From the NCBI GenBank assembly GCA_041658885.1, contig JBAZZJ010000001.1, forward strand, positions 14,779-78,778: a stretch of 64,000 nucleotides of DNA, read 5' to 3'. Shown piece after piece: positions 2,030 to 63,815 of the stretch (position 1 is its first letter; every line of letters begins with the position of its first letter). A model generated the notes under the pieces. The model did not search any database and was not told the DNA's origin. It was given only the letters and a program-made list of their open reading frames with translations. The position numbers and the translations under genes were made by a program. This DNA is from Minisyncoccota bacterium. Its GTDB lineage: Bacteria > Patescibacteriota > Minisyncoccia > Phycocordibacterales > 21-14-all-36-13.

Positions 2030-2150
2030 ATGGATCCCGTTAGAAACCGCGGTCACGGTTTAAAAACGGGGATTATAATGATGAGAAACATAGTATTACA
2101 AATTTAATTAAGCAGAGTGCGGTTGACCGCGACCTGCTTCTAACGGGATG
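2030..2150 (+). repeat. Start-codon hairpin element (family A), arms ATCCCGTTAGAA / TTCTAACGGGAT
   Basis: 12-bp perfect inverted repeat 2034-2045 / 2138-2149, flanked by ATGGA (2030) and ATGGA (2148, the gene start); internal hairpins 2045-2060 and 2119-2130. Confidence 0.8.
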
Positions 2151-2765
2151 GAAAAATTTAATAGGGGTAGCAAATCTAATGGAGGGGATAGAAAATTTGA
2201 CGGAAGAAGCTCTGGCGGAAGAGGTTTTGGTGATAGAAATGAAAGAAGTGGCGGAAGCAGAGGTTTTAATAAAGATAGATCGGACAAACCAGCAATGACT
2301 AAGGCGATATGTTCTGAATGTGGGAATGCATGTGAACTGCCATTTAAACCAACAGGAGATAAACCTGTTTTTTGCAGTGATTGTTTTAGAAACAAAGGCG
2401 GAAATTCAAATTCAAGTCAAGGTAGATTTGGTGGAAGGGATTCTGGCAGGTCTAAATTTGGAGAAAAAAGAATGTACCCAGCAGTATGTTCAGCTTGTGG
2501 AGAAAAGTGTGAGGTTCCATTTCAACCATCAAGCGACAAACCAATATATTGCAATAATTGTTTTGAAAAAAATGCTGATACCAAAAACAAAAATACAGAC
2601 CAATTTCAAAAACAATTTGAAATACTTAATGTTAAATTGGATAAAATTTTAAAAAGTTTATCGTTAGAAATTTCAAAAGAAGTTGTTGATACAAAAAAAT
2701 TAGTTAAAAAAACAGAAATATCTAAGATAAAAAAACCAGTAAAAAAGGTTTCAAAAAAGAAATAA
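2148..2765 (+). CDS. RGG-rich protein with two CxxC...PFxPxxDKPxxCxxCF zinc-ribbon-like modules and a K-rich tail; putative nucleic-acid binder
   Basis: Duplicated Cys motif (CSECGNACELPFKPTGDKPVFCSDCF and CSACGEKCEVPFQPSSDKPIYCNNCF), R/G-rich N-terminus. Confidence 0.65.
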   Translation: MEKFNRGSKSNGGDRKFDGRSSGGRGFGDRNERSGGSRGFNKDRSDKPAMTKAICSECGNACELPFKPTGDKPVFCSDCFRNKGGNSNSSQGRFGGRDSGRSKFGEKRMYPAVCSACGEKCEVPFQPSSDKPIYCNNCFEKNADTKNKNTDQFQKQFEILNVKLDKILKSLSLEISKEVVDTKKLVKKTEISKIKKPVKKVSKKK

Positions 2766-15059: not shown

Positions 15060-15190
15060 ATGGATCCCGTTAGAAATAAAAAGAGATAGTATATAGAAAA
15101 TAACCATCAAATATAAAAAGGTCAACAAATTAAAAATTAATTAAATAAATCGCGGAAATGCCTTCGGCAATCCCGATTTCTAACGGGATG
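15060..15190 (+). repeat. Start-codon hairpin element (family A), arms ATCCCGTTAGAAAT / ATTTCTAACGGGAT
   Basis: 14/14 inverted repeat 15064-15077 / 15176-15189, flanked by ATGGA (15060) and ATGGA (15188, the tkt start). Confidence 0.85.
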
Positions 15191-16030
15191 GAATTAAATG
15201 AGAAAAAAATATTTGAATTAAAAAAAATCGCGAAAGAGGTTCGTAAAACAATTATAAAATCTCTCGTTTCAGCTGGTTCTGGACATACTGGAGGGCCACT
15301 TGGTATGGCTGATATATTTACTGCGTTTTATTTTTATATATTAAAACATAACCCAAAGGAACCACTTTGGTCCGAAAGAGATATATTAATTTTATCAAAT
15401 GGGCACATTGTTCCTGCGAGGTATTCAGCAATGGCGCACGCTGGTTATTTTTCAGTTGAGGAGTTTGAAAATGGGTTAAGAAAATTTGGAACGGTTTTTC
15501 AAGGTCATCCAGATAGAAAATTTTTACCATCGATGGAAACTACGTCTGGTCCTTTAGGTTGTGGCCTTGGGCAGGCAAGTGGAATTGCGCTTGGAGCAAA
15601 AATGGATGGAAAAAGTTTTTATACTTATTGCATAATGTCTGACGGAGAACATCAAGAAGGAAACCTCTGGGAATCGGTTATGTTTGCCGGAAAATATAAA
15701 ATAGATAATCTAACGGGAATTATAGACAGAAATAATATTCAAATAACTGGTAACACAGAAAATATAATGCCCTTGGAATCGTTGAGAAGTAAATATGAAG
15801 CATTTAATTGGAATGTGATTGAAGTTGACGGACACGATTTTGTAAAATTTATTGAGGCAATTGAAATGGCAAAAGTTTCTCGTGGCAAACCAACAGTAAT
15901 TATTGCCCACACAATTCCGGGAAAGGGAGTAAAAGAAATTGAAAACGATTACAAATGGCACGGAATTGCACCGAATAGAGAGCAAGGTGAGAGGTTTTTA
16001 AAAGAATTAGAAGAAACCCCAGTTAAATAA
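15188..16030 (+). CDS. Transketolase, N-terminal (TPP-binding) subunit
   Basis: GHTGGPLGMADI and SDGEHQEGNLWE motifs; start moved to 15188 (MELNEKK) because the upstream 10 codons translate the repeat arm. Confidence 0.85.
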   Translation: MELNEKKIFELKKIAKEVRKTIIKSLVSAGSGHTGGPLGMADIFTAFYFYILKHNPKEPLWSERDILILSNGHIVPARYSAMAHAGYFSVEEFENGLRKFGTVFQGHPDRKFLPSMETTSGPLGCGLGQASGIALGAKMDGKSFYTYCIMSDGEHQEGNLWESVMFAGKYKIDNLTGIIDRNNIQITGNTENIMPLESLRSKYEAFNWNVIEVDGHDFVKFIEAIEMAKVSRGKPTVIIAHTIPGKGVKEIENDYKWHGIAPNREQGERFLKELEETPVK

Positions 16031-18554: not shown

Positions 18555-19439
18555 ATGAAATCTTTAAGAGAAATAATAGAAGAAGCAGAAAAAAGAGGCG
18601 TAGCAATCGGACATTTTAATATCTCAAATATTGAGGGGCTACACGCTGTTTTTAACGCATCTAAAAAACTTAACTCGCCGGTAATAATTGGAGTTTCAGA
18701 AGGTGAAAGAGATTTTATTGGTATAAAACAAGTCGTAGCACTTGTAAAAAGTTTGAGAGAGGAAAATGATTATCCTATTTTTTTGAATGCCGACCACACA
18801 TATTCATTTGAAAGAGCTAAAGAAGTAGTAGATGCAGGTTTTGATTCCGTGATTTTTGATGGAGCAAAATTAAGTACTGAAGAAAATATAAAAATAACAA
18901 AACAATGTGTTGAATATGCTAAAAAAATTAATCCAGAAATTTTAGTTGAAGCAGAGCTCGGATTTATAGGTTCATCATCAAAAATTTTAGATAAAATACC
19001 AGAAAATGTAAATTTAGACAAAGACTCACTCACCAAGCCGGAAGAAGCGAAAGAATTTGTCAAACAAACAGGAATTGATTTGTTTGCTCCAGCAGTTGGA
19101 AATATTCATGGAATGTTAGGACTTGGGAAAGACCCATCTTTAAATATAGAACTTATAAAAAAAATAAGAAAAGAAGCGGGAGTACCACTGGTTCTTCATG
19201 GTGGTTCTGGAACAAGCGACGAAGATTTTAAAAAGGCAATAAAAGCAGGAATTTCAATAATTCATATAAATACAGAATTAAGAGTTGCTTATAAAAACGC
19301 GGTTCAATTATCACTTCAAGAAAACCCAGACGAAATAGCCCCATATAAAATAATGAAGGGCGTTGTGTTGGCAATGGAAAAAGTTGTTGAGGAAAAACTC
19401 AAACTATTTAACTTTCAAGACACAAATGAACGCAGATAA
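18555..19439 (+). CDS. fba: Class II fructose-bisphosphate aldolase
   Basis: NADH(T)... and VLHGGSGTSDEDF motifs; last codons and the stop lie inside repeat 19429-19521. Confidence 0.85.
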   Translation: MKSLREIIEEAEKRGVAIGHFNISNIEGLHAVFNASKKLNSPVIIGVSEGERDFIGIKQVVALVKSLREENDYPIFLNADHTYSFERAKEVVDAGFDSVIFDGAKLSTEENIKITKQCVEYAKKINPEILVEAELGFIGSSSKILDKIPENVNLDKDSLTKPEEAKEFVKQTGIDLFAPAVGNIHGMLGLGKDPSLNIELIKKIRKEAGVPLVLHGGSGTSDEDFKKAIKAGISIIHINTELRVAYKNAVQLSLQENPDEIAPYKIMKGVVLAMEKVVEEKLKLFNFQDTNERR

Positions 19440-19521
19440 AAAATCGCAGATTCACCCCGTTAAATCCTGCGAAGCAGGAATTTTGCCAAAGGCAAAATTA
19501 TTTAACAGGGTAAACGCAGAT
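19429..19521 (+). repeat. 93-nt three-stem palindromic element (family B)
   Basis: 92/93 identical to 26731-26823. Outer stem TTCACCCCGTTAAAT/ATTTAACAGGGTAAA, hairpins CCTGC-GAA-GCAGG and TTTTGCC-AAA-GGCAAAA, flanked by AACGCAGAT. Confidence 0.9.
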
Positions 19522-22549: not shown

Positions 22550-22567
22550 ATGTTATATAATATAAAT

Positions 22568-22697
22568 ATGGATCCCGTTAGAAATAAAACACGGGACAAG
22601 CAGATAAAAACAAATAGAATGTGAACGATAGTATCAAACAAAAATTATAAATTAACTCACGGAAATGCTTTTGGCAATTCCGATTTCTAACGGGATG
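22568..22697 (+). repeat. Start-codon hairpin element (family A), arms ATCCCGTTAGAAAT / ATTTCTAACGGGAT
   Basis: 14/14 inverted repeat 22572-22585 / 22683-22696; ATGGA at 22568 (6 nt after TATAAT 22556-22561) and ATGAA at 22695 (the prfA start). Confidence 0.85.
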
Positions 22698-23654
22698 AAT
22701 AATATTGAAGAATTAAAAAAGAATCCGAAAACAAGTTTTCTTGTTAAAGAATATGAACGCCTACAAAAAGAAGAAGGCAGTCTTTCAGATATGATTAAAA
22801 AGGATTCAAATTTAAAGGAACTTGCTGAAAATGAAATTCAATCAATAAAAATTCAAAAAGATGGGATAGAAAAACAAGTTGAAGAAATTTTGAAAACAGA
22901 AATTGAAGAAGAAGAGTTTCCTAATGAAATAATTATGGAGATTCGAGCCGGCGCTGGTGGGGACGAAGCATCTATTTTTGCTGAGAATTTAGCAAATATG
23001 TATGAAAAATTTTCTGTACTAAATGGATGGAGTTTTAAAAAAATAGACGAATCAAAGAGTGCATCCGGTGGTTATAAAGAAGTGTCTTTTGAAATAAAAG
23101 GTAAAGATGTTTATAAAAAAATGCGTTTTGAAACAGGAGTACACAGAGTACAAAGAATTCCAGTTACAGAAAAGTCGGGGAGAATACACACATCAACAGC
23201 TTCCGTTGCAGTATTGCCAATTGGAAAAAAGAAAACGATTGAAATCAATCCTTCAGATATTGAAATGGAATTTTCTCGCTCTGGAGGCGCTGGTGGACAA
23301 AATGTAAACAAAGTTGAAACGGCGGTTCGTCTTATACATAAACCAACGGGTATTGCAGTTAGGTGCACAGAGGAAAGAAGTCAGTTAAAAAATAGAGAAA
23401 AGGCAATGAGTATTTTACAAGCAAAACTTGAAGTGCTTCACGAGGAAGAAGAAGCAAAAAAGCTATCTTCTGAAAGAAAATCACAGATAGGGACGGCCGA
23501 CAGGTCTGAAAAAATAAGAACATATAATTATTTACAAGACAGAATTACGGACCATAGAATTAAAAAATCGTGGCATAACATAGAAAGCATAATGGCTGGT
23601 TATATAGAAGATATGATAAGTGAATTTGAAAATTTAGAAACAAAAATAGAGTAA
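22695..23654 (+). CDS. prfA: Peptide chain release factor 1
   Basis: GGQ motif ([16 protein letters not shown]) and PVT tripeptide region; start set at MNNIEELKK. Confidence 0.9.
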
Positions 23655-25632: not shown

Positions 25633-25713
25633 ATTGAAACGTAACAAGTTAAAAATAAAAGCTTTACTCGCTTTATTAGAATCTGTTATCATGCCAAAAT
25701 AAATTTATATTTT

Positions 25714-25948
25714 GCCGGCATAGCTCAGTTGGCAGAGCGCCACTTTTGCTCGCCCCGTTAGAACTTTTTGTGATATTGTTTTCAAGTAAGTAGGGATTTG
25801 TTTATTTTTTGCCACTTTAGCTCAGTTGGTAGAGCAACGGTTTTGTAAACCGTAGGTCGTCGGTCCGAATCCGACAAGTGGCTCCAAAATTTAAAAGTTC
25901 TAACGGAGTAAATGGATGTCCGGGGTTCGAATCCTCGTGCCGGCTCCA
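25714..25948 (+). tRNA. Interrupted tRNA gene: 5' half ~25714-25751, 3' half ~25911-25948 with CCA. Apparent anticodon UGC, identity uncertain
   Basis: Acceptor GCCGGCA/TGCCGGC 7/7, D arm GCTC-AGTTGGCA-GAGC, T arm CGGGG-TTCGAAT-CCTCG. Anticodon loop split by a ~160-nt insert closed by CCGTTAGAAC/GTTCTAACGG. Confidence 0.6.
25811..25886 (+). tRNA. tRNA-Thr(UGU), nested inside the insert of the interrupted tRNA
   Basis: Acceptor GCCACTT/AAGTGGC, anticodon arm ACGGT-TTTGTAA-ACCGT, T arm GTCGG-TCCGAAT-CCGAC, encoded CCA. Confidence 0.85.
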
Positions 25949-25984
25949 AAAGTTTTGAATAGATGTTGAGTATTTTATATTAAA

Positions 25985-26014
25985 TTCACATATACGCCAT
26001 GGCGTATATGTGAA
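25985..26014. promoter_or_regulatory. 30-bp perfect palindrome TTCACATATACGCCATGGCGTATATGTGAA just upstream of TATAAT 26021-26026
   Basis: Self-complementary by inspection; shares the 20-bp core ATATACGCCATGGCGTATAT with 26416-26445. Confidence 0.7.
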
Positions 26015-26033
26015 TTTTGGTATAATAACCGTA

Positions 26034-26517: not shown

Positions 26518-27405
26518 ATGGCAGAACAAGATAAAAACAAAGAAAAAGGACATTATCATCCTATCACAATAACAATGTTTAAAATCGGCAAGATTTTTGA
26601 CGATTTAGGTTTTGAAATTGCAGATGGACCACATATAGAGGATGAATATCATAATTTTGATGCACTTAATATTCCCGCGGACCATCCGGCACGAGATATG
26701 TGGGATACCTTTTGGTTAAAGACGCAAATTAACGCAGATAAAAAACCGCAGATTCACCCCGTTAAATCCTGCGAAGCAGGAATTTTGCCAAAGGCAAAAT
26801 TATTTAACAGGGTAAACGCAGATAAAAATACCAACACAAGTCCGCGTGAATTTCCGCGTGAGTCTGCGATGTTATTAAGAACACACACTTCTCCGGTACA
26901 GATTAGATATATGGAAAATAATAAACCACCTATAAAAATTATTGTCCCTGGGAAGATTTTTAGATATGAAGCAACAGATGCAACACACGAGGCACAATTT
27001 TATCAATTGGAAGGACTTATGATTACTCCAAATACTTCACTTGCAACTCTTAAGGGGGTTTTAAAAGATTTTTTAGAAAAATTTTTTGAAGAAAAAATTG
27101 ATATCCGTTTTCGCCCGAGTTATTTTCCATTCGTTGAGCCAGGCCTGGAAGTTGATGCAACCTGTTTTAAATGTTCAGAAAAAATAAATCCAAGTTGTCC
27201 GATATGTAAAGGAACTGGGTGGATAGAAATAATGGGTGCGGGGATGGTTCATCCAAAAGTTTTAGAGAATTGTGGTATTAATCCACAAGAGTGGCAGGGT
27301 TTTGCCTTTGGTGTCGGGATAGATCGTCTAGTTATGCTCAAATACGAAATTCCAGATATAAGAATGCTTTATTCTGGGGATTTGAGATTGATAAATCAAT
27401 TTTAA
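26518..27405 (+). CDS. pheS: Phenylalanine--tRNA ligase alpha subunit, carrying an in-frame repeat insertion
   Basis: HPARDMWDTFW, LLRTHTSPVQ and FRPSYFPFVEPG motifs. Confidence 0.9.
   Translation: MAEQDKNKEKGHYHPITITMFKIGKIFDDLGFEIADGPHIEDEYHNFDALNIPADHPARDMWDTFWLKTQINADKKPQIHPVKSCEAGILPKAKLFNRVNADKNTNTSPREFPRESAMLLRTHTSPVQIRYMENNKPPIKIIVPGKIFRYEATDATHEAQFYQLEGLMITPNTSLATLKGVLKDFLEKFFEEKIDIRFRPSYFPFVEPGLEVDATCFKCSEKINPSCPICKGTGWIEIMGAGMVHPKVLENCGINPQEWQGFAFGVGIDRLVMLKYEIPDIRMLYSGDLRLINQF
26731..26823 (+). repeat. 93-nt family B element in frame within pheS (31 codons)
   Basis: 92/93 identical to 19429-19521; read through as NADKKPQIHPVKSCEAGILPKAKLFNRVNAD. Confidence 0.9.
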
Positions 27406-63370: not shown

Positions 63371-63732
63371 TGGTGCCCGGGGCGGGAATGTCGCAGTGCT
63401 CCCCCGTGATTTTTTTGTCTCACAAGCTCGACATAAAAAATCATTCGATTCCCGACGAAAGTAAATAAATTTACTTTCTCCCCAATCACTTTGTGCCCGG
63501 GGCGGGAATGTCGCAGTGCTCCCCCGTGATTTTTTTGTCTCACAAGCTCGACATAAAAAATCATTCGATTCCCGACGAAAGTAAATAAATTTACTTTCTC
63601 CCCAATCACTTTGTGCCCGGGGCGGGAATGTCGCAGTGCTCCCCCGTGATTTTTTGTCTCGCAAGCTCGACATAAAAAATCATTCGATTCCCGACGAAAG
63701 TAAATAAATTTACTTTCTCCCCAATCACTTTG
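63371..63732 (-). repeat. Three ~120-bp tandem units, each beginning with a 16-nt copy of the tRNA-Leu(UAA) 3' end
   Basis: TGCCCGGGGCGGGAAT at 63374, 63494 and 63614 (and 63733 in the gene); each unit contains the hairpin GAAAGTAAAT-TT-ATTTACTTTC. Confidence 0.9.
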
Positions 63733-63815
63733 TGCCCGGGGCGGGAATCGAACCCGCATGGCGTGAAGCCACAAAATTTTAAGTCTTGCGTGTATACCAG
63801 TTCCACCACCCGGGC
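63733..63815 (-). tRNA. tRNA-Leu(UAA), no encoded CCA
   Basis: Acceptor GCCCGGG/CCCGGGC, anticodon arm CAAGA-CTTAAAA-TTTTG, long variable arm, T arm GCGGG-TTCGATT-CCCGC. Confidence 0.85.

Follow-up and report, generated by a model that had tools for sequence, protein, structure and literature searches.

A mobile hairpin-ended element carrying tRNA-Thr(UGU) probably destroyed and replaced the resident tRNA-Thr(UGU) gene of a Minisyncoccota bacterium

In a 64,000-nucleotide stretch of contig JBAZZJ010000001.1 from a Minisyncoccota bacterium (assembly GCA_041658885.1, positions 14,779 to 78,778 of the forward strand; hereafter the window), a tRNA gene is split in its anticodon loop, after G35, by an insert of about 160 nt that holds an intact tRNA-Thr(UGU) gene. 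Is this insert removed from RNA so that the outer tRNA can function, or did it destroy the gene into which it came? The original prediction, made from the sequence alone, described the removal of the insert and the ligation of two halves, loosely like archaeal split tRNAs, and gave as an alternative that a passenger-bearing MITE (a miniature transposable element with inverted repeats) had destroyed a tRNA gene. Our analysis bears out the alternative through an empty site in a close relative, membership of the insert in an element family and the loss of one nucleotide of the outer anticodon stem. We therefore read the insert as a cargo-bearing, hairpin-ended mobile element, here called E4, that destroyed and replaced the resident tRNA-Thr(UGU), and not as a tRNA intron (rough probability 0.8).

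We first consider the identity of the outer gene. Its two pieces read as initially described. The 5′ piece comprises the acceptor strand GCCGGCA, the D arm, the anticodon-stem 5′ strand CCACU and the loop bases UUUG. The 3′ part comprises U36, A37, A38 and A39, then, without G40, U41, G42 and G43, the variable loop, the T arm, the acceptor strand, U73 and an encoded CCA, and the acceptor stem pairs at 7 of 7 positions. In 75 of 80 related genomes, one tRNA-Thr(UGU) gene is found a few hundred nt downstream of tsf, and among the GTDB tRNAs the outer halves are closest to the tRNA-Thr(UGU) of locus L051. Since they match this post-tsf family, the outer gene is assigned as the resident tRNA-Thr(UGU) and not as tRNA-Ala. 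The remark that its acceptor looked Thr-like agrees with this match, while the apparent UGC anticodon (Ala) was an artefact of reading across the junction, U34 and G35 belonging to the 5′ piece and U36 to the 3′ piece.

The alignment of the orthologous locus, proposed as a check, gave an uninterrupted gene in a close relative. Just upstream of the outer tRNA, a 142-aa protein is encoded that has a homologue with 81% identity on the Logan contig L209, whose upstream flank is about 85% identical to the window (estimated from the alignment). There, the tRNA gene reads GCCGGCATAGCTCAGTTGGCAGAGCGCCACTTTTGTAAAGTGGATGTCCG without any interruption, and an intact gene of the outer type was also found in L205. 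The uninterrupted L209 gene therefore indicates that the outer gene is resident, that its C20 is native to the lineage and that the insertion occurred between G35 and U36. The same comparison reveals the loss of G40: the window reads GTAAATGGATGTCCG and L209 reads GTAAAGTGGATGTCCG, i.e. GTAAA-TGG instead of GTAAAGTGG, and this deletion is present in all strains (L081 to L083). As G40 is lost, no canonical anticodon arm can form even after exact removal of the insert. The outer gene is thus to be classed, judged by its sequence, as a pseudogene that would be dead even with the insert exactly removed.

The inner gene, predicted to be a canonical tRNA-Thr(UGU), is called as such by both ARAGORN and Rfam (Table 1). 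By a hand count, it is identical at 74 of 76 positions to the sole tRNA-Thr(UGU) gene of the orthologous L059 locus, and its acceptor stem, anticodon stem and T arm all differ from those of the outer tRNA. Moreover, the last 7–15 nt of the spacer that precedes it are similar to the leaders that natively precede tRNA-Thr genes of other Paceibacteria. Being of another type than the resident gene and having its own leader, the inner tRNA would have been imported rather than copied from the outer gene, and it is a candidate functional replacement copy. Its T loop (25864-25870) reads UCCGAAU, with a C at position 55, as does that of the L059 tRNA-Thr; a U, as pseudouridine 55, is almost universal at this position of tRNAs.

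The split-tRNA arrangement is present in five independent assemblies (two from ENA, one from JGI and two from Logan), namely the source contig and four more from other samples, with 99.7–100% identity. It is therefore not an assembly artefact but a real arrangement, fixed in a natural population. Two independent Logan contigs, L084 and L085, both end at window position 25846, inside the inner tRNA; this common stop is probably a break of the assembly graph at sequence common to the inner and outer tRNAs.

Then, we investigated the insert as a member of an element family. The arms of E4 had been described as the same as those closing three start-codon elements of the window, and this holds for the elements E1 to E3 of Table 1. 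The window contains nine matches to the arm for 1.66 expected, and four occurrences of the paired-arm pattern versus none in shuffles. For E3, which lies at the prfA start codon, the relative L205 provides an empty site (...TATAATATAAATT/ATGGAAAAC). Using the pattern CCCGTTAGAA, 86–146 nt, TTCTAACGGG in a scan of metagenomes, we found the family in at least 119 contigs, with G+C contents from 30 to 61%. The elements measure 100–160 nt, can be nested within one another and have the layout N5-X-CCCGTTAGAA...TTCTAACGGG-N5, the N5 being direct repeats. These flanking repeats match at five of five nucleotides in 62 of 142 elements and at four of five in 34 of 142, that is at least four of five in 96 of 142. 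N5 is mostly ATGAA, ATGGA or GTGAA, the start codon then being duplicated, or GTAAA, located between the Shine-Dalgarno sequence and the ATG, and there is a correlation between N5 and internal subfamily. Compensatory changes in subfamily A maintain a 12-bp helix, a 4-nt bulge and a 7-bp helix.

A spanning-ORF (open reading frame) test, too crude to be used alone, flagged 28 of the 142 elements as being inside genes; the 11 of these that we inspected by eye included several at start codons or gene junctions, some ambiguous cases and one clear in-frame insertion. The member in the queH gene of L193 lies in frame and adds 44 stop-free codons, and the QueH protein without the element matches Pfam QueH over positions 1-175 of 175. 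With its duplicated start codons, ribosome-binding-site spacers and in-frame sites, the family therefore shows the distribution expected of, and fits, DNA insertions that are not removed from RNA, and not introns. None of the approximately 137 cargo-less elements is inside a tRNA gene. In a viral collection, four contigs carry family arms, with no tRNA cargo. The arm of the E4 type was not found in the 80 GTDB tsf loci, the family being therefore absent from those regions. We found no paper on this family, on its arm sequence, on MITEs at start codons or in Patescibacteria, or on MITEs or mobile insertion cassettes (MICs) with tRNA passengers, and the family appears to be undescribed.

Table 1. 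Coordinates in the window of the split tRNA, the insert E4, its flanking features and the sibling elements
Feature	Position	Strand	Basis or remark
Outer tRNA-Thr(UGU), positions 1-35	25714..25748	+	Same as the uninterrupted L209 gene over its first 35 nt
Junction filler CTCG	25749..25752	+	Likeness to composite family members
Left arm CCCCGTTAGAACTTTT	25753..25768	+	Inverted-repeat comparison
Spacer inside E4	25769..25810	+	Repeat comparison and BLAST matches beginning upstream of the tRNA
Inner intact tRNA-Thr(UGU), encoded CCA	25811..25886	+	ARAGORN; Rfam, 72.9 bits
Right arm AAAAGTTCTAACGG(A/G)G	25893..25908	+	25907 is A in the window, G in L082/L083
Outer tRNA-Thr, 3′ part	25909..25948 (start 25908/25909)	+	Comparison with L209
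Promoter-like site upstream of the outer tRNA	25663..25692	+	TTTACT, 18 nt, TG-n-TATCAT; consensus match only
Palindrome downstream of the outer tRNA, perfect, 18+18 nt	25982..26017	+	
Sibling E1 (subfamily A)	2030..2152	+	ATGGA-T-CCCGTTAGAA...TTCTAACGGG-ATGGA at the ORF 2148-2765 start codon
Sibling E2	15060..15192	+	ATGGA-T-CCCGTTAGAA...TTCTAACGGG-ATGGA at a start codon, 3 nt past the stop of the upstream gene
Sibling E3	22568..22699	+	prfA start codon; flanking repeats ATGGA and ATGAA

These observations bear on the reading in which the outer gene has a tRNA intron of a new type or is a split tRNA, with the 14–16-bp helix marking the excision sites; processing of the inner tRNA would leave two halves that this helix keeps attached to each other, and a working outer tRNA would come from their ligation or from their use without joining. 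In favour of this reading, the outer gene retains its acceptor stem, D arm and T arm, and acceptor pairing, arm helix and inner cloverleaf all persist in one predicted fold (z = −2.96). The arrangement is also fixed in the population, and in a comparable case (L199, see below) precise removal of the element would restore a perfect tRNA. However, the closing inverted repeat, which had been given as a 10-bp helix, is indeed present but with 14 perfect base pairs in the window (25755-25768/25893-25906). It reaches 16 perfect base pairs in the sister strains L082 and L083, whose sole difference in the 448-nt spacer is A25907G. This helix is a continuous perfect duplex of 14–16 bp lacking the 3-nt bulges at 4-bp spacing, and no bulge-helix-bulge motif was found at the junctions by inspection. 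A search of 25650-26000 against Rfam (gathering threshold and E ≤ 10) recovered only the inner tRNA and chance matches, with no group I intron among them, 76 of the approximately 160 nt being tRNA. No ORF was found inside the insert; the intact tRNA is internal, apart from both junctions, and the terminal inverted repeats bound a short element that holds only this tRNA.

Moreover, ARAGORN in intron mode, one of the checks suggested with the original prediction, called no outer tRNA at the locus. We also joined the outer halves artificially in about 380 ways, which gave non-canonical or arbitrary isotypes, and we dropped the placement of an intron. Among the joins listed and by reading the sequence, none gives a 5-bp stem together with a loop of 7 nt and a purine at position 37, and each join of 76 nt with a 7-nt loop has U37. 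Two caveats already attached to the ligation hypothesis thus hold: the rejoined anticodon stem is defective, G40 being absent, and the joins inspected place a U at position 37. A tRNA with a 4-bp anticodon stem, considered from PMC13092985 for the product without G40, was rejected as just three contiguous pairs would be left. In addition, the host is bacterial, cargo-less family members avoid positions that would depend on splicing, one of them being translated through, and the insert contains an identical isoacceptor, a full substitute, so that the outer gene is redundant. With L209 uninterrupted and G40 gone, we regard removal and ligation as very improbable.

Another reading does without a mobile element: the tRNA gene and its flanks would have been partially duplicated in tandem, in place, as commonly occurs at tRNA loci of these genomes, and the inverted repeat would be incidental. 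Related genomes frequently show partial copies beside live tRNA genes, of the 5′ part upstream and of the 3′ part downstream, often in tandem (L004, L007, L011, L047, L059 and L190), a tRNA-Leu(UAA) gene of the window adjoins an array of 3.1 copies of 120 nt, and the outer and inner tRNAs have leaders and trailers that look alike. However, the differences between the two tRNAs in the acceptor stem, anticodon stem and T arm show that they are not recent duplicates, and the insert is bounded exactly by family arms that recur at three more window sites and in the metagenome contigs, while the close relative L209 has a plain gene. Duplication in place therefore seems a poor explanation, to which we accord little credence.

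Several of these copies beside tRNA genes were noted in their own right. The array at 63373-63748 of the window (3.1 × 120 nt, 99% identity) is made of units that each begin with the 3′-terminal 17 nt of the adjoining tRNA-Leu(UAA) (63732-63815, minus strand), and like arrays of a tRNA 3′ end and spacer occur in L004 (4 × 89 nt) and L047 (96-nt period). Conserved tRNA-like copies consisting of GCCACCTTAGCTCAGTTGGTGGAG, a hairpin and GTTTTGTA stand beside the live tRNA-Thr(UGU) in several Paceibacteria (L004 2285-2643; L007 5056-5290; L011 5095-5150 and 5283-5374; L059 5048-5100). ARAGORN calls some of them 92-nt ‘tRNA-Ser(act)’, and they could be fossils or a functional tRNA-like RNA. In L190 (9505-9908), the first 13 nt of a tRNA-Arg(GCG) gene are repeated 115 nt upstream of it, and its last 18 nt, with 6 nt of trailer, are repeated 210 nt downstream, as if small elements had integrated at both gene ends.

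The history of the locus under the mobile-element reading can be proposed as follows. An ancestral single tRNA-Thr(UGU) gene would have stood downstream of tsf with its own promoter. A non-autonomous, hairpin-ended CCCGTTAGAA...TTCTAACGGG element would then have inserted in its anticodon loop at the GTAAA motif preferred by the family (G35-A39), the inserting copy carrying a complete tRNA-Thr(UGU) of a different Paceibacteria type and a short native leader. The passenger being the same essential tRNA, the insertion would for this reason have been survivable, and then fixed. Since that time, the inner tRNA would be the working gene, most likely transcribed from the old promoter and cut from its precursor by RNase P and 3′ processing, whereas the outer gene, having lost G40 and with a remodelled left junction, would be a decaying pseudogene; no ligation of halves would be required.

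The junctions of E4 may retain traces of further steps. On the right, the junction is the family-typical CGGG-GTAAA, GTAAA being G35-A39 of the anticodon loop. On the left, the junction GCTCGC-CCCGTTAGAACTTTTT matches over about 22 nt the inner ‘cargo-slot’ arm of the composite subfamily-B members L088 and L089, in which GCTCGC (G25748, CTCG and C25753 in the window) precedes that arm (...GCTGCTCGC-CCCGTTAGAAC...). A larger subfamily-B element with a tRNA in its slot might thus have inserted at GTAAA, after which a slippage deletion between two direct copies of TTCTAACGGGG could have trimmed the right side and an illegitimate deletion the left side. Members of subfamily B are composed of multiple hairpins and show the CCCGTTAGAA/TTCTAACGGG helix up to three times (L088 102-286, L089 1946-2127, L096 6857-6975, L109 and L145). 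Their variable slot lies at the tip of a 23-bp helix, and subfamilies B and D share the modules CGGGGCATTAAACCCCG and CCCCGCTGC..GCAGCGGGG.

Five points weigh against replacement by a mobile element. First, E4 has no clean two-sided 5-nt repeat (GCTCG on the left, GTAAA on the right), and its history therefore needs secondary deletions or a non-standard insertion. Second, no transposase or recombinase for the family was found among arm pairs more than 300 nt apart and the ORFs beside 12 unpaired arms, these ORFs resembling ordinary cellular genes as judged by their first 60 residues, without a family search; mobility is therefore deduced only from the copies, the flanking repeats and the empty sites. 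Third, the 64-kb window is too short to establish the inner gene as the sole tRNA-Thr(UGU). Fourth, we infer the expression of the inner tRNA from sequence features. Fifth, the cargo matches the isoacceptor of its host gene in three cases, for which random insertion alone gives no explanation.

This last point led us to consider the recurrence of like-for-like nesting. Among the fetched elements of the family, three carry a tRNA: E4 in the window and one each in L199 and L107. In L199, an element with the same arms and a tRNA(CAU) lies inside the anticodon loop of another tRNA(CAU). Without the element and 6 nt, the outer gene is a canonical tRNA(CAU) of 74 nt, and a clean 6-nt repeat, of which the window has no equivalent, is present at both junctions. 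As this contig encodes TilS, CdhD and a pterin-binding methyltransferase, it is presumably not from a close relative of the window organism. The L107 element carries a tRNA-Pro and is not inside a tRNA. In a further case, GTDB locus L071, the arms are different inverted repeats of 18 bp; they enclose an intact tRNA-Thr and lie within another tRNA-Thr, which is heavily decayed and has in addition lost 1 nt after the loop.

Such nesting could arise by homing, in which a tRNA-carrying element, of this or a similar family, specifically enters its cognate resident gene at the anticodon loop and, as a selfish cassette that replaces a tRNA gene, becomes indispensable; a recombinase that targets the anticodon stem-loop, or guidance by homology between cargo and target, could provide the route. 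Two of the three cargo-bearing CCCGTTAGAA elements are inside a tRNA with the same anticodon, compared to none of the cargo-less ones in any tRNA, for which our own calculation gives C(3,2)/C(140,2) = ~3e-4. The third case (L071) has different arms, and the cases span unrelated bacteria, given the genes on the L199 contig. As a lead only, the joined arms and flanking repeat resemble a tRNA anticodon arm (inner tRNAs CTCATACCCGTTAGG in L199 and GTAAACCGTAGG in the window, versus the junctions (T/C)TCAT-CCCGTTAG and GTAAAC-CCCGTTAG), and the repeat sequence tracks the subfamily, as if the element carried its own crossover sequence. However, a preservation bias could mimic this pattern, because a passenger is recognizable only if the resident gene is dead and tRNA insertions survive only if compensated. 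Moreover, the L107 element lies outside any tRNA despite its cargo, the sample is small and comes from at least 119 metagenome contigs, no enzyme was found, and the likeness to an anticodon arm amounts to 4–8 nt. Either survivorship bias or true targeting may underlie the pattern, and we hold homing as a tentative idea. Equally speculative is its extension, in which cargo-slot elements would be tRNA-gene replacement cassettes that home to the cognate anticodon loop across phyla, with joined ends that may be recognized through their mimicry of the anticodon stem-loop, the resident gene being destroyed and the element becoming indispensable, and serial rounds leaving the tRNA fossils found around live tRNA genes in many Patescibacteria.

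We also searched cargo-less elements for degenerate tRNA remnants. ARAGORN at low threshold made 15 calls versus about 3 in shuffles; these extra calls lie in hairpin-rich subfamilies without T-loop and D-arm motifs and were not accepted.

Finally, we compared the family with known systems. As an element kind, E4 is supported as a MITE or a MIC, refined to like-for-like gene replacement. The family is short, has terminal inverted repeats and no transposase, occurs in many copies within and across genomes, shows short direct flanking repeats (E1 to E3 and most of the family), empty sites in relatives (L209 and L205) and nested copies, and one copy here carries a passenger gene. MICs carry passenger genes, and we know of no parent insertion sequence or transposase for the present family. 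It differs in that the passenger, a tRNA gene, encodes the very isoacceptor of the destroyed gene, in the correlation of the flanking repeat with the subfamily, and in the concentration of insertions, in fixed orientation, at start codons and ribosome-binding-site spacers. MICs are mentioned in PMC5444012 and PMC6542083. The models of integron attC sites, Tn3/TIME, IS200/IS605 and REPIN elements were rejected on topology: the order of core and inverse core is reversed, the ends are CCCC and not GGGG, and flanking repeats exist.

Rickettsia palindromic elements (RPEs) are about 100–150 nt long, occur in reduced genomes and can lie in frame within coding genes and be translated with them. In these properties, the queH member of L193 and a separate 108-nt hairpin element in the pheS gene of the window resemble them, both being in frame; E4 does not. 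To our knowledge, no RPE has a tRNA passenger or targets start codons. The 108-nt element (CCCCGTTAAAT...ATTTAACAGGG) is present in two copies with 96% identity, at 26716-26823 and 19414-19521, flanked by AACGCAGAT direct repeats and distinct from the CCCGTTAGAA family; its second copy is in frame (36 codons) within the pheS ORF, RPE-like.

The Correia elements of Neisseria (CREE) are inverted-repeat elements of about 100–160 nt, located just upstream of genes, which can form long hairpins in transcripts and are proposed to act as promoters. Subfamily A resembles them by its fixed orientation relative to the downstream gene and its internal TATGAW box, but differs in sequence, hosts and flanking repeat (5 nt here versus TA), and a promoter role here is putative. 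The fixed orientation of the family relative to the downstream gene was observed across metagenomes. E1 to E3 create a short upstream ORF starting with MDPVR, the real AUG being at the foot of the 12-bp helix, and such start-codon elements may act as mobile promoters or leaders. At prfA (window 22553-22570; L205 580-602), a TATAAT box stands 6–7 nt before the ATG, just past the terminator hairpin of L31, and the ancestral prfA mRNA looks leaderless; E3 puts 127 nt between the promoter-proximal ATG and the real prfA start.

The elements that target tRNA genes through a tyrosine integrase share with E4 the insertion in the anticodon loop (G35/U36 here), the preservation of tRNA function through the tRNA sequence brought along and the fragments left behind; tRNA gene fragments have been described as products of integrated elements (PMC9897764). 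Classical elements of this type measure kilobases, encode an integrase and carry the displaced part of the tRNA, leaving a hybrid gene at one junction, whereas E4 has 160 nt, no integrase and a whole separate tRNA, the resident gene being dead. Group I tRNA introns, archaeal bulge-helix-bulge introns and split tRNAs also interrupt the anticodon loop, but the insert lacks both a ribozyme core and a bulge-helix-bulge motif, its host is a bacterium, and no canonical tRNA results from rejoining the exons.

As for the genomic setting, the window has a G+C content of 32%, the bacterial housekeeping genes around the split tRNA encode L31, RF1, S2, EF-Ts, PheS/T and GyrB, and the nearest EF-Ts loci among GTDB species representatives, with at most 65% identity, are from Patescibacteria of the Paceibacteria/Parcubacteria group. 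The flank containing the promoter-like site is conserved in L209, and this site is likely the promoter of the whole unit, including the inner tRNA. The downstream palindrome, for which a terminator scan gave no call, may serve as the terminator of this unit.

For annotation, the inner gene should be taken as the real tRNA-Thr(UGU) and the outer halves as a pseudogene, neither an intron-containing nor a split tRNA. For the biology of the organism, a mobile element would have put a foreign tRNA gene of the same isoacceptor in the place of an essential, single-copy one within a reduced genome, as has happened at least three times independently; we found no description of tRNA gene turnover or horizontal replacement by this route. 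More widely, E4 belongs to a large family whose members, in Patescibacteria as in other uncultured bacteria, sit exactly at start codons and ribosome-binding sites; one would expect such insertions to influence translation start sites, leaderless mRNAs and the calling of genes in these genomes. If the like-for-like targeting is true, these elements would represent a new form of selfish ‘addiction’ through an essential tRNA.

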